Assembly (NCBI GenBank): GCA_048213135.1
Contig: PS015009.1
Coordinates: 496,001-560,000, forward strand
Length of the DNA: 64,000 nt
Direction of reading: 5' to 3'
DNA from: Reclinomonas americana ATCC 50394
Lineage: Eukaryota
Position 1 is the first letter of the stretch. Every line of letters starts with the position of its first letter. The translations under genes were made by a program, and so were the position numbers. Shown here in pieces: positions 3 through 11,266 of the stretch. The notes below the pieces were generated by a model. That model had not been told where the DNA came from, made no database searches, and saw only the letters and a list, made by a program, of their open reading frames with translations.

Positions 3-416
3 GTGGCCGGATTGATCGCTTTCAAATTCACGACCAACTATCTCAGTTCCGACATCGAAAAAATAACAACAGAGAATATCATCTACCAGGCTACACTGCC
101 CGGTATACAGGAGGAGGTCATATTCCGGGGACTTTACCTGGCCCTGCTGGTCAATGCTTTTTCTGAAAGCAGCCAATCATTTCTCCGCGGAACAGGTGTT
201 TATGGTGTACTGCTCATCCTGCTGTTCGCCCTCGTACACGCTGTGGAGATCGGTAACGGGTTTAAGTTTCATTTTAATGTGGTACTGTTTTTCTCTTCCG
301 CGCTGGCCGGTTGGGTGTATACCTGGTTACGACAACGCAGCGGATCACTGGTACCGCCAATCATCGGTCATAATCTTACGAACCTGTCCATCAGCATAGC
401 CCAACTGCTCAAATGA
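3..416 (+). CDS. CPBP/CAAX (Abi) family intramembrane metalloprotease, 5'-truncated by the window edge
   Basis: Motifs QEEVIFRG, FALVH and GHNLTN match the EExxxR / FxxxH / HxxxN signature; hydrophobic helices; stop overlaps the next ATG (ATGA). Confidence 0.9.
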   Translation: MAGLIAFKFTTNYLSSDIEKITTENIIYQATLPGIQEEVIFRGLYLALLVNAFSESSQSFLRGTGVYGVLLILLFALVHAVEIGNGFKFHFNVVLFFSSALAGWVYTWLRQRSGSLVPPIIGHNLTNLSISIAQLLK

Positions 417-3400
417 AGGAGAACAGCACATATGAACATTTTGATTTCGCGGTGCTGAGAACCCCGTTGCTTCCGATGTATACGGCAGTGAACGGGAAAA
501 AACGGTTGTTTATTTCCGATTCGGATGATTATGCTACCTTATTCAGTAAATTATCATCCCCTCACTTTGAAGAAGCATTGCTCATCTCTTCATCTGACCT
601 GTACCAGGAATACCTGAAAATAAAATCCGAAGGCGTTAACGAGGAAAATAAAAGTGCTCTGCGTAAACTGATCTGTTATTTCCTCCGCATGTCGGCACGG
701 GCCACCCCTTATGGTATATCTGCCGGTGTTTCGGCGCTGACCATTAGCGACCAGACCTCAATCCGGATCGGCAATATGGAGGAGCACCGGAAAAAAGCCA
801 GCATCAACTTCGATTACATCACGGGCAAAATGAAAGGGTTGATGAAAGAGGAGGCTTTTGTAAAAAAGCAGACCTACTATGCCAACAATACCGTTTACGT
901 CAACTTTAATGGCATACACTTTAACCGCATCAACCTCCCACCCTATACACAATCCGTAATCGGTTACTCACAGCTGATCATGGACCTCCTCGGTTTTGCA
1001 AAGCATGGCAAACATTTCGATGAGCTGGTCGGCTATATCACCACTGCCCTGCAGCAACCGGCCGACGCAGCAGCAGCTTTCATTATTAAACTGGTCTCGA
1101 TTGAACTGCTGACGCCGGATATTCTGCCTTCGCTTTTTTCAAAAGACATCAATGGCGCTTTCTGGGGCAAACTGAATAACGCCGCATCATTGAATGGATT
1201 GGGTAAAGTTGCCCTGCAAATGGAAACAATCAAACAGGAAAGTATCGGCAACAGCATCGGCACGTTCAAAGACATCACCGAATCTCTTTCACTTGAAGGC
1301 ATAAATAATTACCTGCATTTTACATCTGCCTATTGCCTGGAAGATAACCGGGTTGATGCCCGTGTCGCAAATGATATCAGCAACCTGCTTGTTTTTCTTT
1401 GTAAACTGCGCGGGCAGAAAGGCAATGCCTACCTCCGGCAGTTCACCCGGCAGTTTGAGGAACGCTATGGCGATAAACAGGTATTGCTCGCCGAAGCGCT
1501 TAATGAACGTACGGGTATCGGCTATCCTCCGAGGGCAACACCGTTCATTAAAAATGATATTACCCTTGCTTTAAAGAATATCGATTTCCTGCAATCTCCC
1601 GATGGTCACCAGTGGGACAACTTCATCATCTACCTGCTCAACCGGCGGCGTTCGGTTAACAGTAAGGAGATCATACTTACAGAAGAGGACCTCAGTCTTT
1701 ACAATTGCGGATTAGCGGAAGAGGACCTCAGCAGTTCCCTTTACTGTACGTTCGGACTTATTTCAGAAAAAGAAACAGGCACAAAGGATGGCGAATACCT
1801 CATTGACTTTATGTATGCCGGCGGACCTTCCTGTATCAATTCACTTAACCGGTTTTCGGGATTGGGTGAAGAACTGGGAAGGAATATCGCGGCCTGCGCA
1901 CAGTGGGAGAATGATTATTATAAAGACCAGGGCATTAATCTGGCGGAGATCAATTTCCTGCCCCGCAATGGCATTGCCGGTAATATACTGCAACGCGGCA
2001 ATCCAAGACAATACGAGATACCCATACTCACCTGCCCTACCCCGGGAAAGCACATCATTCACCTTAACCAGGTTTACCTGGGCCTCGAAAACGGTGAACT
2101 CGTTGCCATTGATAAGGAAACCAACGAAAGAATATTGCCGGTAGCAACGGTTTTGTACGATAATCACAACACCAATTCTGTCAGCTTTAACTCCTTTCTT
2201 ACCGATCTCAATCACCAGGAAAAAATATACAACGTTCAGTGGGACTGGGGTAATATGGAGCAGGTGCTGGACCATTTCCCAAGGGTCTGCTTCAGGAATT
2301 GCGTATTGTCCAAAGAAACCTGGGTCATCAGGGTAGAAGAAAGCGGCCAGGCCGGCAGGGAAGCACTCCGATCGCTGCTGCGCCGCCGCAATATTCCTTC
2401 AAGTGTTTATTATATCGAAAAGGAAGATCATTTGCTTTTCCTGAACCTTAATAATGATCCCTGCCTTGACATCCTTGAATCGAAACTGAGAAAATACGGC
2501 AAGGTTACTTTGGTTGAAAACCTTTATACCAAAGAAGGAACTTTTATCGGCAGTCCCTCGGGATATCATGCCAATGAATTCATTCTTCCCCTGCGCTTGG
2601 GCGATGATTGTATTGCCCGAAAAAGAAGTAAGATAAAAGATGCCGGCCGGGCATTATCTTTTTCCACCAACCGAACCCGGGTAAAATTATTTTGTAATCT
2701 TTTACTGGCCGATGAACTGCTCGACAAGTTTACCGGGCATTTCTGCACTGGTCAGCCAGCCAGGCGGTTACTCCATTTTGAAAGGGTGGCGCAATCACCG
2801 CATTTGTTGCTGGTATTGGAAGACGACAGCAATAATCCTCTTACGGCCTCCCTGCTGGAAGAAGTATTCGGAGAGTACATTAAAGTCAGCCACCTGTACA
2901 GGTGGGAGATAAGCGAGGAAACAATCACATGGCCGCATATTCATGTAACCTCGCCGGATTTACAGGAAGCAGTAATGGAACAGAACACTTCCGTGATATG
3001 CGACCTGCTAAAAACAATAAAACCGCTGAAGACGCCGGATCCTTATACACTTCGCCTGCTCTGCCTGGCCGCCTTAACTGTACGGTATATAAAGATCATC
3101 AGCAAAGAAGATGTGGTAACCGCCAAACACCTGGCTGACCTGCTGCTTCAAAAAGTTGGCCGGCACGTAACAAGCGGCGGCGGCGTAATCAGGAAAAAGA
3201 TACTGGCGGGCACTTATAAAAAAATGATTGACCAGGTAGCCGGTCATTACAACTCAGAGATAAAACAGGTTAAAGATGTGATCGATACCCATGTACCATT
3301 AAGCACCCGGTTCGATTTCGGTGAAAAAGAATTACCAGTAACGGAGATGGCCAATATACTGGAAACAATAATACAATTCACCGGCAATAAATTATTGTAC

Positions 3401-3502
3401 GCTGATATGGAGCGAAGCGAATGGCTGGTATTACTTGATTTCTTAAAACAATATTTTCATTACGAACCGGTACTGGCCTTACACAGGAAAATTTCTTTGT
3501 AA
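413..3502 (+). CDS. LanB-like (class I lanthipeptide/thiopeptide-type) dehydratase with a divergent C-terminal elimination domain
   Basis: 1029 aa; LRTPLLP, YFLRMSARATPYG, FEERYG, LAEINFLP, FPRV and ANEFILPL motifs are typical of the glutamylation domain. Confidence 0.85.
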   Translation: MKENSTYEHFDFAVLRTPLLPMYTAVNGKKRLFISDSDDYATLFSKLSSPHFEEALLISSSDLYQEYLKIKSEGVNEENKSALRKLICYFLRMSARATPYGISAGVSALTISDQTSIRIGNMEEHRKKASINFDYITGKMKGLMKEEAFVKKQTYYANNTVYVNFNGIHFNRINLPPYTQSVIGYSQLIMDLLGFAKHGKHFDELVGYITTALQQPADAAAAFIIKLVSIELLTPDILPSLFSKDINGAFWGKLNNAASLNGLGKVALQMETIKQESIGNSIGTFKDITESLSLEGINNYLHFTSAYCLEDNRVDARVANDISNLLVFLCKLRGQKGNAYLRQFTRQFEERYGDKQVLLAEALNERTGIGYPPRATPFIKNDITLALKNIDFLQSPDGHQWDNFIIYLLNRRRSVNSKEIILTEEDLSLYNCGLAEEDLSSSLYCTFGLISEKETGTKDGEYLIDFMYAGGPSCINSLNRFSGLGEELGRNIAACAQWENDYYKDQGINLAEINFLPRNGIAGNILQRGNPRQYEIPILTCPTPGKHIIHLNQVYLGLENGELVAIDKETNERILPVATVLYDNHNTNSVSFNSFLTDLNHQEKIYNVQWDWGNMEQVLDHFPRVCFRNCVLSKETWVIRVEESGQAGREALRSLLRRRNIPSSVYYIEKEDHLLFLNLNNDPCLDILESKLRKYGKVTLVENLYTKEGTFIGSPSGYHANEFILPLRLGDDCIARKRSKIKDAGRALSFSTNRTRVKLFCNLLLADELLDKFTGHFCTGQPARRLLHFERVAQSPHLLLVLEDDSNNPLTASLLEEVFGEYIKVSHLYRWEISEETITWPHIHVTSPDLQEAVMEQNTSVICDLLKTIKPLKTPDPYTLRLLCLAALTVRYIKIISKEDVVTAKHLADLLLQKVGRHVTSGGGVIRKKILAGTYKKMIDQVAGHYNSEIKQVKDVIDTHVPLSTRFDFGEKELPVTEMANILETIIQFTGNKLLYADMERSEWLVLLDFLKQYFHYEPVLALHRKISL

Positions 3503-3530: not shown

Positions 3531-3977
3531 ATGACAAGAAAGTTATCGGCATCCAACCAGATTGAAGTACGGTTCAATGAAGTGGACTCTTACAATATTG
3601 TATGGCATGGCAACTATGCGGCTTACTTCGAATCAGGAAGGCAGGCTTTTTCCAACAAGTACGGCCTGGGGCAGAAAGAAATGATGGAAGAGGGATTTTA
3701 CCTGCCGCTTACCAAACTTGATTTCGAATTTAAAGGTCCGCTGCTGTATAACGACCGTGTCAACGTCATTACCTCTTACCGGGACTGTTTTGAAGCAAGG
3801 CTGCTGTTCGATTATGAAGTGTACCGCATATCCGACGATAAACTGGTTTGCAGGGGCACAAGCGAGCAGGCCATTGTGGGGCTCGACTGGAAGATCAGGA
3901 TATTCCCCCCGGCTTACCTGGTAGCCTGGAAGAAAAAATGGCTTGTTGAAGAAACCGTTAATAACCACATCGATTAA
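3531..3977 (+). CDS. Acyl-CoA/acyl-ACP thioesterase (4HBT/YbgC hotdog fold)
   Basis: VRFNEVDSYNIVWHGNYAAYFESGR motif. Confidence 0.9.
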   Translation: MTRKLSASNQIEVRFNEVDSYNIVWHGNYAAYFESGRQAFSNKYGLGQKEMMEEGFYLPLTKLDFEFKGPLLYNDRVNVITSYRDCFEARLLFDYEVYRISDDKLVCRGTSEQAIVGLDWKIRIFPPAYLVAWKKKWLVEETVNNHID

Positions 3978-3988
3978 AAATACGAACC

Positions 3989-5254
3989 ATGAGCGTAAGC
4001 TACTCCATTGAGAAAGTTGAGTCATCCTCCAAAGAGCCGTTGTATGTGCTGACCGTTGCAGACAGTAAAGTGTTTTATGTGGGTGAGCTTATCTGCCGGA
4101 TCATTGAAAAACTCGCGGAAGGAAAATCGAAGAACCAGATACAAAATGACCTGAATGAGCAATTCAGGGGATTGCACGAGTTCAATAAGGCGCAGATAGA
4201 TCATATCGTAGATGAGAAGATCGCCAAACTGGGCATTTTCGGGAAAGGCGGCGATGTTGCCAGGTCGACCAACTCCCCGCTTTCCAACATAAAAGGGAAA
4301 TGGACCATTACCACGTTTGAGATGATCAAACCGCTTTTGAGTGTAATGCAATATCTTTTCCGGCCTACCACCTACCTGGTGTTGTTCATTGCCTTGCTGG
4401 CCATTAACAGCTATTACATGTATATTGTTTTTACCCAGCATATACAAACCGTGAACCACATCACCAACCTGAAAGGCTGTGGAAAGGGCATGGATTTCCT
4501 GCTGATGTTCTACCCCTGCGCTTTCCTCATACTGTACATGCATGAATTGGGCCATGCTGCCGCCTCATATTGTTTTAAGGTGATCCCAAAAAATATCGGC
4601 ATGGGTTTTTACCTCATCTTTCCTGTGCTGTATACAGAACTCAATGGAGTGTGGAAGTTATCCAGGACAAAAAGAACGATCATCAATACCGCCGGCATAT
4701 TTGTTCAACTCCTGCTGAACCTTATTCTTATCGCCATCGTGTTCAATGTATCAGGCGACACCTCTAAAAAGGTTTCCCAATACCTGATACAGATGAACAT
4801 ATTTACCATGCTCCTGAACATAAACCCGTTCCTCAAATTCGACGGTTACTGGATACTGAGCGATCTTTTCAAATTTCCCAACCTCCGCCAGCAATCCAAT
4901 TATTATATCATAAAAGCGATCAACTTCCTTTTCCCGAAGATCAAGCTGAAGGTTCCGCCACAGGTGGAGGCCATTGTAAGACCACGGAATCTTTTCCTGA
5001 TCATATATTCCCTGCTCAAGTATTGCTTTATCGGTTATATACTCTATGCGCTTCCGCGGGGTGCCATCTTATCTGTAGCAAAAATGTACGAACTGGTGAG
5101 TTATAACCTCATTCAGCAACACGATTACTCTACCTGCACCATTGAAGCGATCGTTAAAACAGGCTTCGGACTATTCATCATAGGCTATTTCCTGTCTAAA
5201 CCCCTGCAATCAGTCGTACAGGTAATTGCACAAAAAGTAAAAAAACGCTCATGA
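3989..5254 (+). CDS. M50 (site-2 protease) family peptidase with an N-terminal RRE/PqqD-like domain
   Basis: HELGH zinc motif; NINPFLKFDGY (NxxPxxxxDG); several TM helices; soluble ~85-aa N-terminus. Confidence 0.85.
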   Translation: MSVSYSIEKVESSSKEPLYVLTVADSKVFYVGELICRIIEKLAEGKSKNQIQNDLNEQFRGLHEFNKAQIDHIVDEKIAKLGIFGKGGDVARSTNSPLSNIKGKWTITTFEMIKPLLSVMQYLFRPTTYLVLFIALLAINSYYMYIVFTQHIQTVNHITNLKGCGKGMDFLLMFYPCAFLILYMHELGHAAASYCFKVIPKNIGMGFYLIFPVLYTELNGVWKLSRTKRTIINTAGIFVQLLLNLILIAIVFNVSGDTSKKVSQYLIQMNIFTMLLNINPFLKFDGYWILSDLFKFPNLRQQSNYYIIKAINFLFPKIKLKVPPQVEAIVRPRNLFLIIYSLLKYCFIGYILYALPRGAILSVAKMYELVSYNLIQQHDYSTCTIEAIVKTGFGLFIIGYFLSKPLQSVVQVIAQKVKKRS

Positions 5255-6486
5255 ACGGATTCCTGACCTATCGTATGTCGCCTTTCCTGAACATCCAGGA
5301 AGTGGAGAATGGCGGCGAGAAGCTGAAAGTTTTCAACTATATCTCCGGGCGTACTTTTGAGCTGGGCACTAAAGCTGTTGAAATACTGCGTTATTTCCGG
5401 AAACCGCATACCATTCCGGAAATGAGCGATCATTTTGAACTGGAGAAAAGCACGGCACAGAGTGTGGTGGAAAACCTGTTGCAGGTAAAACTGCTGCTGG
5501 AACAGGGAAAAGAGGATGAGTTCGCGAAAGAGATCACTTTACCGGCTCAAACCCTGTTTGGCGTACCCGAAAAAGTTTCACCGCTTAACCGGGATGGTGA
5601 AAAAAGAATACGCTTTACCGGCATTCCTTTTGGAAGAGGAAATGATATCGGTTACGGTACAGAAGATTTTCCCGATCACCTCCGGAGCAAGACCCATTAC
5701 CTTCATTTTACACCAACGAATGTTGAGCACATCAATTTCGACTTTCTCGACGGTACCGGAAGCGGCGGTAACCTCAGCTCACTTTTTAAAAAAGAAAGGG
5801 TGACCGATGCCGGTAATATCTTCATCGATTTCAGTGAGTCAACGGATTTTATTTATGAGAAGATCGCCGACATTTCGGCCGACCTTTTCCGTTCGGGCGA
5901 TATCCCATTCTTCATCGGCGGCGATCATTCCATTACCTACCCTATTGTAAAAGGGGCCGCGGAAATACATGAACGTTTTTCCATCCTTCATTTTGACGCA
6001 CACTCCGATACTTCTTTCAGCAAATACGATAAAATAAAACATGTCCGTAAAACATCACACACCCATGCCAATGTGATCAGCCGTTGTATGGAACTGGAAG
6101 CGGTGGAAGCGGTCTATCATTTCGGGTTAAGGGGTATCACCAACCGTTTCGTTACGGAAGACCCCGGGCAAAAAATTTGCTGGGCTGCGGACACAGACGC
6201 GGTTATAAGCGGGCGCCAGGCAATTGAGCTCGACAGATCGCAGCGGTATTATATCACCATTGATATTGATGTCATTGATCCTTCCTATGCACCCGGCACC
6301 GGAAGCCCCACCATCAACGGAATCAGTCCGCGGCAGTTGTTTGACCTGATGAAGAAATTGTTGCCCGGGCTGGACATTATTGGCGCTGATATCGTGGAAG
6401 TAAATCCGTCAAAAGACCCGTCGGGCATTACTACGCAAACCGCCACGGAAGTGATCCTGCACCTGATGAATTACATGTACAAATGA
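5251..6486 (+). CDS. Arginase/agmatinase (ureohydrolase) family protein with an N-terminal RRE-like winged-helix extension
   Basis: GGDHS, FDAHSD, DIDVIDP, PGTGSP and DIVEVNP motifs; about 85 extra N-terminal residues. Confidence 0.9.
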   Translation: MNGFLTYRMSPFLNIQEVENGGEKLKVFNYISGRTFELGTKAVEILRYFRKPHTIPEMSDHFELEKSTAQSVVENLLQVKLLLEQGKEDEFAKEITLPAQTLFGVPEKVSPLNRDGEKRIRFTGIPFGRGNDIGYGTEDFPDHLRSKTHYLHFTPTNVEHINFDFLDGTGSGGNLSSLFKKERVTDAGNIFIDFSESTDFIYEKIADISADLFRSGDIPFFIGGDHSITYPIVKGAAEIHERFSILHFDAHSDTSFSKYDKIKHVRKTSHTHANVISRCMELEAVEAVYHFGLRGITNRFVTEDPGQKICWAADTDAVISGRQAIELDRSQRYYITIDIDVIDPSYAPGTGSPTINGISPRQLFDLMKKLLPGLDIIGADIVEVNPSKDPSGITTQTATEVILHLMNYMYK

Positions 6487-6544
6487 TACATCCCGCAATG
6501 GGGCTGATGAAACAGTGAATGAGAAGCGGGACTGGGGATGCTCC

Positions 6545-7414
6545 TTATTTACATTTATAGGAGAACAATATTTTGCTTTTGGTGGCCGGTATACTGAACT
6601 GGTCGTCGCCGTTCATCACTACGCTCAGCACATAGTTATCGCGGCTGAGCACATAAGTGCCGAATGCGGAAACGGAAGAATCCCCCCTCACCACGTTACC
6701 CGGGTCGTAATTCCTTACCACCATATTTTTCACACCATTGGAAGGGCGGTTACCGAAGTTGTAGAACTGCGTAAAGTTTTGCAGTATCCTTTCATCGGGA
6801 AAAATATAAATAAACCTTTTGGGTATGATGTTGGTGTAATAGCTCACATCCGCGTCGGTAACCAGGTCGCCGGTAAAGGCGTCTGTGGCCGTCATATGGG
6901 TAATGTTGTTGTTGGTATAGGTATAGGTCACCACGTAATAATCAATGGCGGGAGCACTGCTCAGGCGATAGTGTTTATCGGTAAGATAGCCCGCGCTGTT
7001 GTATACATAATAAACATCGTACTGTGGCGATGTGGGATCGGAAGGATCGATAAGGCCATGGAATTTATTTACCCTTTTGGTGAACAGGTCGGTCACGAAG
7101 TACTGATCAGGGTCAATAAAAACGGTATCGTTGGAATATACAGGTTGTGCATTGAAATCAAGTACAAAAGCGAGACTGTCGAAGCGGCTGATGTCAACGG
7201 CATTATCCTGTGTATTAATGATCGCCGCCAGGGAACCAATGCCAACGCCGGTAGCGCTGTCGGTATATACCATTTTGCTGATGCGGCAGTCCACACCAAC
7301 GATCAGCGGGTTATTGGTACCGTCTCCCGTATTCTCTGTACTGTATTCTTTTTCACAGGAGTAAAGTCCTGCAGCAAGAAGGAGGATAAGGGAGTATACA
7401 GTTAATCTTTTCAT
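6545..7414 (-). CDS. Lipoprotein of unknown function, beta-rich
   Basis: Lipobox LYSC followed by EKE; Tyr/Asn/Thr-rich. Confidence 0.8.
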   Translation of the reverse strand: MKRLTVYSLILLLAAGLYSCEKEYSTENTGDGTNNPLIVGVDCRISKMVYTDSATGVGIGSLAAIINTQDNAVDISRFDSLAFVLDFNAQPVYSNDTVFIDPDQYFVTDLFTKRVNKFHGLIDPSDPTSPQYDVYYVYNSAGYLTDKHYRLSSAPAIDYYVVTYTYTNNNITHMTATDAFTGDLVTDADVSYYTNIIPKRFIYIFPDERILQNFTQFYNFGNRPSNGVKNMVVRNYDPGNVVRGDSSVSAFGTYVLSRDNYVLSVVMNGDDQFSIPATKSKILFSYKCK

Positions 7415-7506
7415 CTCTTTATTTTCTGATTGCTCTGTTAAATAACGTATTTTATTTTCTGCTGTTGCCCGTTTGCCGCAATTAGCATACCATAATTAAC
7501 ATCTTT

Positions 7507-9579
7507 TTATAACTGGGCCTTGAATTTGCCGTTGGTTACGGTAAAGCTGACAGCAGACAAATTGATCACTGTTCCGCTGAACGTTCCCTGTATAATGCCA
7601 TTAACGGTGTCATAAGTTGTTACAGTTGCGCTCAGGTTGGTCAGCCCCGAGCCGGCCAGTGAGAAGAACTGCGTTGTGTTATAGGAAAAGTTCACATACT
7701 TGCCGCTGCTGGAAGTACCGGAATAACCTCCGGTTGTTATATTTCCTGCCGAATTGAACAGATCGATATTGAGGTTGCCACCGGATGTTGAGAATATATT
7801 CAGTTGTTGTGATCCGCCGAGGTCAAAAAGGATAGCGCTGCAATCACCTTCATATTTAGTGGCCCCAACAGTAAACTCCCATTTCAGATCGGTTGGCGGC
7901 GGTGTGGTACCCACTGTTACATCAAAATTGCAGGAGCCCAGTGTAAAGCTGTTGGTACCCGCTGTGGTTGGATTGCCCGTACCATTCAGTATAACGGTTT
8001 GTACACCGGTGGTACCGAATACACCACTCTTGCTGAACGTCATGCCGCCCTGCGTGGTGGTGAGTGTATAGGTACCGGTAGAAGTTACGTTCACACCAAC
8101 ACTGACTGTATTACCCGCAGTTAAAGCCGTACCCACGGTATAAGTTCCGTTTACGGTAATCGCCCCGCAGTTGATGGTATAAGCCGCTGCAGGCGGGGCG
8201 GTAACCGGTACAGAGAAAGTACAGGTGCTGCCTGCGCCATTATTGGCTGTATAATTATTGGTACCCACGGAGGCAGGTGTGCCAGTGCCTGTCAGTACAA
8301 CAGTCTGCACGCCTGTGCCGGCGAAAATGCCCGTCTTTGAAAATGAAATACCATTTACAGAGTTGGTGGTAATGGTATAAGCACCGGCCGTAGTTACGTT
8401 CACCTGCAGGCTTACTGTATTGGAAGCGCCGAGCGGGTTGCCGGTATAATAAGATCCTGCCAGCACAGCACCGGAACATGTTCCCGGAGCTCCCTGCAAT
8501 ACATAGGATGCAGGCGGCGGCGGTGGATTATAGTTCACGCTGAAAGTACAGGAAGTGCTTCCCGTACCGCTGCTGATCACATGATTGAATGCGCCCGCCG
8601 CGGCTGGTGTGCCATTGCCGGTAAGCGTAATCGTTTGTGGTCCCAGCGTGGTAAAGTTGCCGGAACCGGCGTATGTAACACCATTAACCGGCGCGGTGGT
8701 AAGGCTGTAAGAGCCCAGCGCAGTAACAGTAGCGCTTACCGTAACCGTGTTGGCAGCAGTAAGCGGTACGCCCTGGATATAAGTCCCCGCAAGCACAGCG
8801 CCGGTACAGTTACCCGGGCTGCCGCCCAATGTATAGGCGGAAGTACCCGGACCAGGCGCATTGGTATGAACAGTAAAACTGCAATTACCTGTTGGAACGG
8901 TTGCGGTATAATTGAAATCGCCTTCGGCCATGGGTGTACCCGACGCGGTGAGGGTAACGCCCTGCGTACCGGTGGTGGTAAATACACCACTGCCGGAGAA
9001 AGTAATACCGTTCAGTGAATTGGTGGTTACCGTATAGGTGCCGAGCGTGGTCACGTTCACCACAAAATTGACGAAGTTGGTATTATCAGTCGTAGTGCCC
9101 GCCTGGTAAGTACCGCCAAGCGTGAAACCCGTACAGTTACTGCCTGCGCCGCCGAGTGTATAGATGGCCGCACCGGTGGTTGTACCAAAAACAGTGATAT
9201 CGAAAGTACAGATGCTGGTACCGAATTGTATGGTGAAGGTTGACGTTCCTGCCGCGGTGGGTTTACCGCTGGCATACAAACGTATCGTATTAAGACCGGC
9301 TCCTACGGTGCCGGATTTACTGAATGAAAAACCATTGATGGTATCCGATTTGATATCGAAAGCGCCGATATTGTCGGCGGTCAGCTGTACATCCACATAA
9401 TGATCGGAAGTGAGCACACTGTCTACCCGGTAAATGCCATTCACGGCGATGGGAGCACAATTGCCGGCGCCATCTTTCTGAAACCTGCCGGTAACCACAT
9501 CGGAAGTCAGTTCTTTATTACATGCGCCCAGCAGCAGGGCCAGCAGCATCATTCCCAGGAACCAGTGTAATCTTTTCAT
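7507..9579 (-). CDS. Surface lipoprotein with five ~110-aa Cys-paired beta repeats and a distinct C-terminal domain
   Basis: Lipobox LGAC-NKE; repeats of C..GTY..G..NTV..VNVT..G.Y..NG..FS..G..Q..L..GTP..C.F.V. Confidence 0.85.
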   Translation of the reverse strand: MKRLHWFLGMMLLALLLGACNKELTSDVVTGRFQKDGAGNCAPIAVNGIYRVDSVLTSDHYVDVQLTADNIGAFDIKSDTINGFSFSKSGTVGAGLNTIRLYASGKPTAAGTSTFTIQFGTSICTFDITVFGTTTGAAIYTLGGAGSNCTGFTLGGTYQAGTTTDNTNFVNFVVNVTTLGTYTVTTNSLNGITFSGSGVFTTTGTQGVTLTASGTPMAEGDFNYTATVPTGNCSFTVHTNAPGPGTSAYTLGGSPGNCTGAVLAGTYIQGVPLTAANTVTVSATVTALGSYSLTTAPVNGVTYAGSGNFTTLGPQTITLTGNGTPAAAGAFNHVISSGTGSTSCTFSVNYNPPPPPASYVLQGAPGTCSGAVLAGSYYTGNPLGASNTVSLQVNVTTAGAYTITTNSVNGISFSKTGIFAGTGVQTVVLTGTGTPASVGTNNYTANNGAGSTCTFSVPVTAPPAAAYTINCGAITVNGTYTVGTALTAGNTVSVGVNVTSTGTYTLTTTQGGMTFSKSGVFGTTGVQTVILNGTGNPTTAGTNSFTLGSCNFDVTVGTTPPPTDLKWEFTVGATKYEGDCSAILFDLGGSQQLNIFSTSGGNLNIDLFNSAGNITTGGYSGTSSSGKYVNFSYNTTQFFSLAGSGLTNLSATVTTYDTVNGIIQGTFSGTVINLSAVSFTVTNGKFKAQL

Positions 9580-9613
9580 TGTTGTGTTCTGTATTGATTG
9601 GTGATGTATATCG

Positions 9614-11266
9614 TCAGAATATCGCTATCCTGGTGGTTTCAAATTCCTGTGTCGTGCTCAGCTGGAGATTATCCAATTTATCATAAATAAGACCAAAACC
9701 TTTGGCATACCATCTTTCTTCTTCAGCCACAGCAATATCGCCCAGGCCTATATTAGCGAGGTAGGTATATTTCACTTTAATGACCCTGGTGTAGGTATTC
9801 CCGGCCACGGTAGCGCTTACACCTTTGGCGATGATCTCCGCGGTAATTTTCGCGGTAAGCGGTATACCGCCCGAGCTGTTGCTGCCCAGGTTATCGGTCC
9901 AGGTAGCGCCCACATTCAGTGACGAGTCCAGCAGTTTGATTTCTTTATTGATGGGATTGTCGAGTAAGCCGAAGTCGCCATCGAGGAACTGGTAATACGA
10001 GTTGACCGCTTTACGCTGGTACAGCGAATCGGTGGGTGTGCCGGTATCGAGTGTTTCGAAGATACGGTATACCTGGCCTGAAAAGGTTTTGGTATCGGTG
10101 CTGGCTTTTATATAAGTGGTGTCGCCTGGTGCTCCGCCAACGAGCCTTGCCGACCAGTTGCTGAATGGTGTTTGCGGTAAATAATCGAGGTTGGTCACCG
10201 GTGGCGGTGTGGTGCCGGAACTGGTAATGGAAAAAGTACAGTTGCTGCCCGGCGCTGCGGCGGTATAGTTGAAAGTGCCAGCAGCTGTTGGTGTACCGCT
10301 GGCATCAAGTACGATGGTTTGTACACCTGTGGACGTAAAGGTCCCGTTCTTGCTGAACGAAATGCCATTCACCATGGCGGCGGTAATACTGTAGGTGCCG
10401 ATGGTGGTTACATTTGCTTTGAGGCTTACGGTATTGGTAGCATTGGTAGCTGTGCCGGCAGTATAGGTTCCGTTGGAAACAGCGCCTGAACAGTTGCCGG
10501 GGCTGCCTTCAAGCGAGTATACAGCCGATCCGGAGCCTGCGGGTAATACAGTAATATCATAGCTGCAGGTGGTGCCTGCATTGGAAGGCGTGAAAGCGAA
10601 TGTTCCGCCTGCAACCGGTGTTCCCGAAGCCTGCAGGGTAATGCCTTGTGTACCGGTAGTGGTAAAACCGCCCGAACCGCTGAACGTAATGCCGTTCACC
10701 GTGGTGGTGGTTAAACTATAGGTGCCGATGGTGGTCACGTTCACGGAAAAGTTCACCCAGTTGGTGGCGTCGGTGGGTATACCGGCAGTATACGTACCGT
10801 TAACGGTGAAACCCACGCAGTTGCCGGGTGAGCCGTCGAGGGTAAAGATGGCGGCGCCGGTACTGGGACCAAAAACGGTAACATCAAAAGTACAGGTGCT
10901 GGTGCCGAAGGTAACGGTGAAAGTATGGGTGCCTGCGGCGAGTGGTTTACCGCTGCCCAAAAGCCGTATGGTATTGAGACCGGTACCCATGGTGCCCGTC
11001 TTGCTGAAGGAATAACCGTTGATGGTGTCGGATTTAATCTCGAAAGTACCGCCGTTAACGGCATTCACCTGCACATCTACAAAATTGTCAGCTTTAAGGG
11101 TGCTGTCTACCCGGTAGATGCCGTTGATCGTAACGGGAGCACAGTTACCTGCTCCGTCTTTCTTAAATGCCCCGGTAGCTATGCCATCACCTTCCAGTTC
11201 CTTCTGGCAGGCGGAAAAACCCGCCACTGCCACGGCCAGCCCCAACAACCATTTAAGCAGTCTCAT
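9614..11266 (-). CDS. Surface lipoprotein paralog with three of the same repeats and a different C-terminal domain
   Basis: Lipobox FSAC-QKE; first repeat closely similar to that of 7507-9579 (KDGAGNCAP..NGIYRVDS). Confidence 0.85.
   Translation of the reverse strand: MRLLKWLLGLAVAVAGFSACQKELEGDGIATGAFKKDGAGNCAPVTINGIYRVDSTLKADNFVDVQVNAVNGGTFEIKSDTINGYSFSKTGTMGTGLNTIRLLGSGKPLAAGTHTFTVTFGTSTCTFDVTVFGPSTGAAIFTLDGSPGNCVGFTVNGTYTAGIPTDATNWVNFSVNVTTIGTYSLTTTTVNGITFSGSGGFTTTGTQGITLQASGTPVAGGTFAFTPSNAGTTCSYDITVLPAGSGSAVYSLEGSPGNCSGAVSNGTYTAGTATNATNTVSLKANVTTIGTYSITAAMVNGISFSKNGTFTSTGVQTIVLDASGTPTAAGTFNYTAAAPGSNCTFSITSSGTTPPPVTNLDYLPQTPFSNWSARLVGGAPGDTTYIKASTDTKTFSGQVYRIFETLDTGTPTDSLYQRKAVNSYYQFLDGDFGLLDNPINKEIKLLDSSLNVGATWTDNLGSNSSGGIPLTAKITAEIIAKGVSATVAGNTYTRVIKVKYTYLANIGLGDIAVAEEERWYAKGFGLIYDKLDNLQLSTTQEFETTRIAIF

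Follow-up and report, generated by a model that had tools for sequence, protein, structure and literature searches.

A PF00491 ureohydrolase fused to a RiPP recognition element, a probable leader-guided peptide arginase

Described peptide arginases and the fused enzyme of the window

The known peptide arginases OspR, KspR, FlmR, OhkR and PbsE are assigned to PF12640 in the part of PMC12703449 that deals with them, and they carry motifs of their own according to the corresponding part of PMC10028609. A single reported peptide arginase, KgrD of the enteropeptin pathway, belongs to PF00491; it is Mn-dependent and acts on an arginine (Arg) beside a Cys (PMC12703449, same part). To date these two sources, the OspR-type enzymes and KgrD, account for the ornithine (Orn) that is seen in ribosomal peptides. 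Here we analysed a gene at 5251..6486 (+ strand) of a 64,000-nucleotide stretch, called the window throughout, that covers positions 496,001 to 560,000 of contig PS015009.1 (assembly GCA_048213135.1, Reclinomonas americana ATCC 50394). The gene encodes 411 amino acids (aa) plus stop, in which a PF00491 ureohydrolase domain follows a predicted recognition element (RRE) of the kind found in the biosynthesis of peptides that ribosomes make and that are modified after translation (RiPPs). This RRE-arginase is probably a leader-guided peptide arginase that converts Arg to Orn, and it most likely represents a lineage separate from the OspR-type enzymes of PF12640.

The reaction that we propose resembles that of the OspR-type enzymes, which turn peptide Arg into Orn and urea during RiPP maturation with a binuclear-metal arginase fold (in the account given by PMC12703449). 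The window protein itself scored 12.8 bits against PF12640 (cut-off 27; E 0.16), and the OspR-type motifs were absent from it. In the OspR-type literature examined, leader binding is ascribed to the dimer cleft and an RRE is not mentioned, whereas the window protein has an RRE fused to the enzyme. PbsE contains tetratricopeptide repeats (TPRs), and the separate RRE protein beside it serves the MNIO enzyme (cluster description in PMC12257519). KgrD, compared here by description only, is likewise a conventional-type PF00491 ureohydrolase acting on a peptide Arg next to a Cys, but its pathway is that of an Enterococcus radical-SAM sactipeptide and the RRE-arginase belongs to a cluster with LanB and fatty acid synthase (FAS) genes. 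No RRE fused to a PF00491 arginase was described in the literature searched; the 2025 RRE survey (PMC12710340) uses none of the words 'arginase', 'agmatinase', 'ureohydrolase' and 'PF00491' in its main text, and such a fusion might be listed in its large data sets. An arginase of conventional type carrying an RRE would constitute a further lineage for ornithine formation.

Recognition element, catalytic domain and fusion family

AlphaFold2, run with an alignment of 40 sequences, gave a model (pLDDT 90.2, pTM 0.90) whose N-terminal part contains strands at residues 7-9, 13-16, 24-29 and 34-39, three helices at 40-48, 55-62 and 66-78 and a strand at 82-84. A sequence-only reading had anticipated a strand and helix pattern of about 85 aa; the pattern is present in the model, whereas the domain is longer, about 95 aa (aa 1-95, 5251..5535, +), and is followed by a poorly conserved linker of about 25 aa (aa 96-119, 5536..5607, +; pLDDT 75-86). 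A second model, of the domain alone, had pLDDT values of 83-97 over residues 1-90 and was searched against the PDB. Both models show the RRE fold as it is defined in the relevant part of PMC12710340, plus one extra short N-terminal strand, and the residues N29..SG33.F36 are conserved at the beta2-beta3 turn.

Pfam gave nothing significant for residues 1-120, its helix-turn-helix (HTH) matches being sub-threshold. Three other comparisons led to the same proteins. A profile made from residues 1-145 of 24 family members matched one PDB chain significantly, that of TigE (8VPO) over residues 4-96 (E 4.3e-7), and the RRE of TigE is placed at residues 3-85 in the part of PMC10878394 that describes it. 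TigE was also first (E 1e-4) when the domain model was searched with Foldseek, the first nine matches being TigE, TbiB1 (ranks 2 and 5), lasso B1, LynD (ranks 4 and 7), MibB, PqqD and TruD, with MccB, ThcOx, McbBCD, TbtB, CteB and MadB among the further ones. Similarly, VIA-align of the domain model against 48,161 representative chains placed TigE at Z 13.2 (root-mean-square deviation 2.2 A over 89 residues), followed by MibB (9.9), MccB (9.1), 3DEE (8.7), TbiB1 (8.7), lasso B1 (8.2), TbtB (8.1) and MadB (7.8) and, lower, by the PbtF RRE (7.7), LynD (7.4), NisB (7.4), CteB (7.2) and PqqD (6.9); fifteen RRE-bearing chains besides TigE lay at Z 5.2-9.9. The RRE structures matched are largely the reference RREs listed in the part of PMC12710340 devoted to them. 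Language-model features pointed to PqqD (0.76) and MftB chaperone clusters (0.75) as look-alikes, which we took as a lead only. Since the profile match, Foldseek and VIA-align agree, the reading of the first ~95 residues as a domain folded like an RRE is supported, and this domain would bind a leader. TigE is its closest relative by both profile and fold; the enzyme to which the RRE is joined is of the radical-SAM/SPASM type in TigE and a hydrolase in the window protein. A fused RRE of this kind would be a portable handle for substrate recognition, useful for peptide engineering.

The catalytic domain (aa 120-411, 5608..6483, +) matched Pfam Arginase PF00491 over aa 120-405 with E 2.7e-53 and 181.7 bits (gathering cut-off 22). 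The full set of metal-ligand motifs reported by the sequence-only reading was located inside this match and so is not a chance pattern: GGDH at aa 223-226 (5917..5928, +; ligand H226), DAHSD at aa 249-253 (5995..6009, +; ligands D249, H251 and D253) and DIDVID at aa 338-343 (6262..6279, +; ligands D338 and D340). In the alignment, G223, G224, D225, H226, D249, A250, H251, D253, D338, D340 and E383 (6397..6399, +) were invariant in 40/40 family members, and the six ligands and E383 were also invariant in a second alignment (50/50). From arginase structures, we take E383 to be the guanidinium-binding Glu. The ureohydrolase binuclear metal site, with six His/Asp ligands in motifs of the GGDHS, DAHxD and SxDxDxxDP type (PMC10028609, in its account of the motifs), is thus complete in the window protein. 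Its ligands bear on the possibility that the protein is a scaffold or chaperone, which would present the RRE-bound leader to the LanB, protease or putative acyltransferase of the cluster (see below) and whose hydrolase activity would be dispensable. Discrete and fused RREs are often delivery modules, as the corresponding part of PMC12710340 has it, but the invariance of the metal ligands and E383 across the family argues for selection on catalysis, and we regard a mere scaffold as very improbable.

In sequence, the catalytic domain is close to enzymes of small molecules. Agmatinase was the best named NCBIfam match (7.1e-42), and the closest solved proteins were agmatinases and guanidino-acid hydrolases, with Escherichia coli agmatinase SpeB (7LBA) as the best Foldseek match for aa 120-411 (E 4e-22, 25% identity) and the same metal-ligand motifs. 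These matches, together with the 'agmatinase' labels of many relatives, would suit an ordinary agmatinase or other small-molecule ureohydrolase, in which a winged-helix N-terminus served regulation, DNA binding or oligomerisation and the position in a RiPP-type cluster was incidental. Winged-helix regulators do appear lower in the fold lists. But the DNA-binding winged helices reached Z ~5 in VIA-align with the helices alone covered, and RREs surpassed them by 3-8 Z units with the strands covered too. Moreover, the protein scored under the equivalog cut-offs for agmatinase SpeB (TIGR01230; 143.9 bits vs 174.3), arginase RocF (TIGR01229; 69.7 bits vs 227.6) and the NCBIfam formimidoylglutamase. 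SpeB and the small-molecule ureohydrolases are without the N-terminal domain, and they have an Asp after the first core strand where the window protein has Gly, within a GIPFGRGN loop (5620..5643, +). In the RRE-arginase clade, G128 replaces this Asp, which is 97% conserved in the short agmatinases, and positions 130, 131, 140 and 196 differ as well (G130, N131, F140 and E196), with G128, G130 and N131 forming the clade-specific part of the loop; despite the changed loop, the catalytic residues are all retained. The fused proteins also form their own clade, as described next, and we consider an ordinary agmatinase quite improbable. The combination of an RRE and a GIPFGxGN loop in 'agmatinase'-labelled genes would be a genome-mining marker for FAS-linked lanthipeptide-type clusters in Bacteroidota.

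The RRE-arginase fusion is a conserved family and not an accident. Among 120 ureohydrolases listed from the 703 found by a word-index search, at least 39 were 388-442 aa long and alignable over the N-terminal domain. These fused relatives were mostly metagenomic; the named ones, including one from Sungkyunkwania multivorans, are annotated as 'agmatinase' or 'arginase family protein'. A profile search of 1.84 billion representatives returned 155 proteins at E <= 0.001 (76 at <= 1e-10), mostly of ~400 aa. When 23 matches of other lengths were scanned with Pfam, they comprised three radical-SAM/SPASM proteins (P0234, P0237 and P0246), three M50-type HExxH proteases (P0241, P0253 and P0256), the match lying at the N-terminus in both of these groups, one TP_methylase, two larger arginase fusions and eight proteins without a family, mostly stand-alone and of ~100 aa; in the remaining six, Pfam recognised repetitive or unrelated families of HTH/PAS type, and these were taken as noise. 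For the tree, proteins shorter than 255 or longer than 850 aa and 13 non-arginase matches were left out, and four of the 221 selected catalytic domains were dropped for short cores. In the resulting FastTree of 217 domains, a sample biased by the way it was gathered, 108 of the 141 N-extended proteins fell into one clade of 110 (support 0.78), within which a sub-clade of 91 (support 0.96) includes the window protein. The 33 N-extended proteins that remain made up a clade to themselves (0.97), and the 74 short agmatinases lay outside.

Ordinary agmatinases dominated a contig scan for the whole family, since its search patterns had been derived from the catalytic core. Among the matches listed, L001 alone spanned the N-terminus; it was rejected as a relevant relative, having a neighbourhood without RiPP genes, a standard PFD loop and a place in the outer group. 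In 401 sampled Bacteroidota genomes there was no full-length match, and four of these genomes had weak matches to the RRE part only (E 1.1e-6 to 8.5e-4). Two tandem frames of ~480 aa (L085 and L089; G023:C40, 36361-38064) show a weak N-terminal similarity to the RRE profile (E 1e-6 and 2e-5) and may be a pair of RiPP maturases.

Gene neighbourhood and candidate precursor peptides

The sequence-only reading had further proposed that the enzyme acts on a leader-bearing peptide, and the genomic context speaks for this: an HExxH protease and a LanB accompany the RRE-arginase at every locus, and Arg-bearing precursors were found in three related genomes. In the window, a + strand operon consists of genes for a CPBP protease, LanB, a thioesterase, the HExxH protease and the RRE-arginase. 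The ATG that starts the RRE-arginase gene and the TGA that ends the HExxH protease gene run into each other as ATGA, which fits translational coupling. The protease (3989..5254, +), an intramembrane metalloprotease with HELGH at aa 185, was recognised by Pfam Peptidase_M50 (2e-6) and resembled the NCBIfam families daptide_HExxH (6.3e-24) and LiaK-type (3.1e-14), both under their cut-offs; it is likely to be the leader protease. The LanB is a class I dehydratase of 1029 aa (413..3502, +) identified by Lant_dehydr_N (5.4e-87) and by similarity to MadB (9G04, E 8.4e-28). Its C-terminal third had no Pfam match to Lant_dehydr_C and resembles this domain by language-model features alone (0.96); as both Pfam domains are found with strong scores in the LanBs of the three related genomes G696, G734 and G737, the elimination domain of the window LanB is unusually divergent. 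Between the two genes lies a 4HBT-type (hot-dog) thioesterase (3531..3977, +; Pfam and NCBIfam scans), and the operon opens with a CPBP (Rce1-like) intramembrane protease (3..416, +; Pfam/NCBIfam), the 5' end of which is cut by the window edge.

Five further loci showed how far this arrangement is kept. A metagenome contig search recovered two loci only, L081 and L082, with 42% identity, and both have the LanB-thioesterase-HExxH-arginase cassette followed by a short-chain dehydrogenase/reductase (SDR). L081 has a CPBP protease upstream and a ketosynthase (KS) at the locus edge; in L082 the contig begins within the LanB gene and a MacB-type permease follows the SDR. Among 401 genomes of the order to which a Cyclobacteriaceae metagenome-assembled genome belongs, matches were obtained in G696, G734 and G737 (Cytophagales), where the order is acyl carrier protein (ACP), tandem small genes, HExxH protease, RRE-arginase and a TonB/CarboxypepD_reg outer-membrane protein; the protease of G734 was assigned by position and length only. 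Hence the RRE-arginase directly follows the HExxH protease in six loci (the window, L081, L082, G696, G737 and G734), and the two genes overlap by 4 nucleotides in G696 as in the window. Such conservation argues against an ordinary agmatinase placed there incidentally. A LanB is found inside or beside the cluster in all six loci, a full one at the flank of G696, G734 and G737, whereas none of the six showed a LanC cyclase.

The LanB of L081 is encoded by two overlapping open reading frames, 5242-6951 (569 aa) and 6948-8252 (434 aa), through a frameshift or a true split. Besides the full LanB at the flank, the operon of G737 includes another LanB-like protein (866 aa; L095 7937-10537), in which the N-terminal (glutamylation) domain was matched only in part. 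The long operon of G696 is headed by a NusG-like protein (L093 6960-7532), possibly a specialised antiterminator, and a histidine kinase/LytTR response-regulator pair (L093 1699-3431) stands beside LanB, as in bacteriocin loci regulated by peptide signals. As for the proteases, the matches of the M50-type proteins P0241, P0253 and P0256 to the RRE profile have E values of 3e-4 to 8e-4. In the HExxH protease of the window, the first ~110 aa (3989-4330) may be RRE-like too; an hhalign comparison of the RRE profile with this N-terminus was not significant (E 0.025, probability 1.9%).

Directly upstream of the protease, G696 and G734 carry nine tandem small genes each and G737 five, encoding 36-61 aa. 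In 18 aligned products, L10, I12-V13-E14-L15-E16, R18, E20, T22, R30 and C31 were invariant, which includes a leader motif IVELE-x-R, and the sequences were variable after C31. In 23/23 small-gene products, Arg-Cys comes after the leader. With a leader that is conserved, a core that is hypervariable and modification sites that are kept, the small genes look like typical RiPP precursors in multiple copies, and we read them as such from their sequences. In the mechanism that we propose, the RRE would bind the conserved leader of these small ribosomal precursors, and the binuclear-metal ureohydrolase domain would hydrolyse the guanidino group of a peptide-bound Arg to yield urea and ornithine. 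The target in the related clusters would likely be the invariant Arg of the Arg-Cys pair at the leader/core junction. From the same operon, LanB would dehydrate Ser/Thr and the HExxH membrane protease would remove the leader.

Possible fatty acylation, opposing evidence and flanking genes

The related clusters also carry genes of fatty acid synthesis. Pfam identified an AMP-binding ligase, a phosphopantetheinyl transferase, a FabA-like dehydratase, two KS-type proteins and a ketoreductase (KR) upstream in G696 and G737, and a type II thioesterase lies within the operon of both (downstream there in G696); G734 has a run of gene lengths equal to those of G696 and G737. An additional enzyme was indicated by P0177 (829 aa), an RRE-arginase fused to a further domain of 410 aa. 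Neither this domain nor its stand-alone homologues (367-416 aa) had a Pfam, NCBIfam or PDB sequence match. A profile of the homologues matched, by hhalign, a 402-aa protein of the G737 cluster (L095 6693-7898; E 5e-53) and a 390-aa protein of G696 (L093 7600-8769; E 2.8e-55), and the former gave a Lip_A_acyltrans match of E 2.9e-4 and 20.6 bits, under the cut-off of 22.3. This hints that the 390-402-aa cluster protein might be an acyltransferase. The P0177 fusion suggests that both enzymes act on one substrate in sequence, and such consecutive action would fit, by analogy with the selidamides, the formation of ornithine and then its N-acylation. The putative acyltransferase would place a fatty acyl group, made by the FAS-like genes of the cluster itself, on the delta-amine of ornithine.

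Taken further, these genes might define an undescribed lipo-RiPP class of Bacteroidota, with Arg-Cys cores of ~7-15 residues, dehydration by LanB, conversion of Arg to Orn by the RRE-arginase and N-acylation in which an acyltransferase that is LpxL-like and RRE-bearing uses a fatty acid built on the cluster ACP. We put this forward as a tentative proposal. In selidamides, ornithine is subsequently fatty-acylated (PMC13647313, in the part describing them). If the lipo-RiPP proposal holds, the likeness to the selidamide pathways of kamptornamide and phaeornamide, as outlined in that part, would extend from arginase through ornithine to acyltransferase, with a lanthipeptide enzyme on the same core. 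The enzymes differ: PF00491 plus RRE stands for PF12640, a putative LpxL-like protein for GNAT and LanB for LanM, and the cluster has FAS-like genes of its own. Selidamide logic would then be carried out by a non-homologous enzyme at every step, with the P0177 fusion as its signature.

The same FAS-like genes allow for a different substrate. In guanidino-polyketide pathways, late-stage amidinohydrolases of the ureohydrolase superfamily are found. By such a route, the AMP-binding ligase would load an Arg-derived guanidino acid on the ACP as the starter, and at a later stage the amine of a leader-attached lipopeptide would be freed by the ureohydrolase, the guanidino group being removed from the lipid part. 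The presence of the ligase, ACP, two KS-type proteins, FabA-like dehydratase and KR in the same operons would agree with this, as would a catalytic domain nearest to agmatinases and guanidino-acid hydrolases, whose substrates are without an alpha-carboxylate. But this route leaves the junction Arg of 23/23 precursors unexplained, and P0225 (775 aa) joins the RRE-arginase to a RiPP-type enzyme. P0225 is a ThiF-RRE-arginase protein, the ThiF part of which resembles, below threshold, SagC/TOMM leader-binding proteins, and in it the RRE-arginase module would serve in another kind of RiPP setting. We therefore regard a lipid guanidine as an unlikely target and retain peptide-bound Arg as the probable one.

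Several observations weigh against the leader-guided peptide arginase and its proposed pathway. The sequence-only reading had called the N-terminus PqqD-like, and of this the RRE element stood, as the TigE profile, Foldseek and VIA-align indicate, whereas the PqqD model PF05402 matched 0/40 family members at E <= 1; for this reason we speak of an RRE fold rather than of the PqqD family. By its sequence, the catalytic domain resembles that of agmatinases, which leaves room for a small guanidino substrate. The precursor evidence comes from loci whose arginases are only 37% identical to that of the window, and a motif of the IVELE type was absent within the DNA searched of the window, L081 and L082. 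Since both R18 and R30 are invariant in the precursors, the choice of a target Arg is guesswork. Lastly, the acyltransferase assignment comes from one sub-threshold Pfam match.

Downstream, the operon of the window ends after the RRE-arginase gene, given that the next genes are convergent and of lipoprotein type. Three consecutive lipoprotein-like genes occupy 6545-11266 on the minus strand and encode 289, 690 and 550 aa. The 289-aa protein is without a Pfam or NCBIfam match, and the 690- and 550-aa proteins have similar N-termini and Thr/Gly-rich repeated modules.

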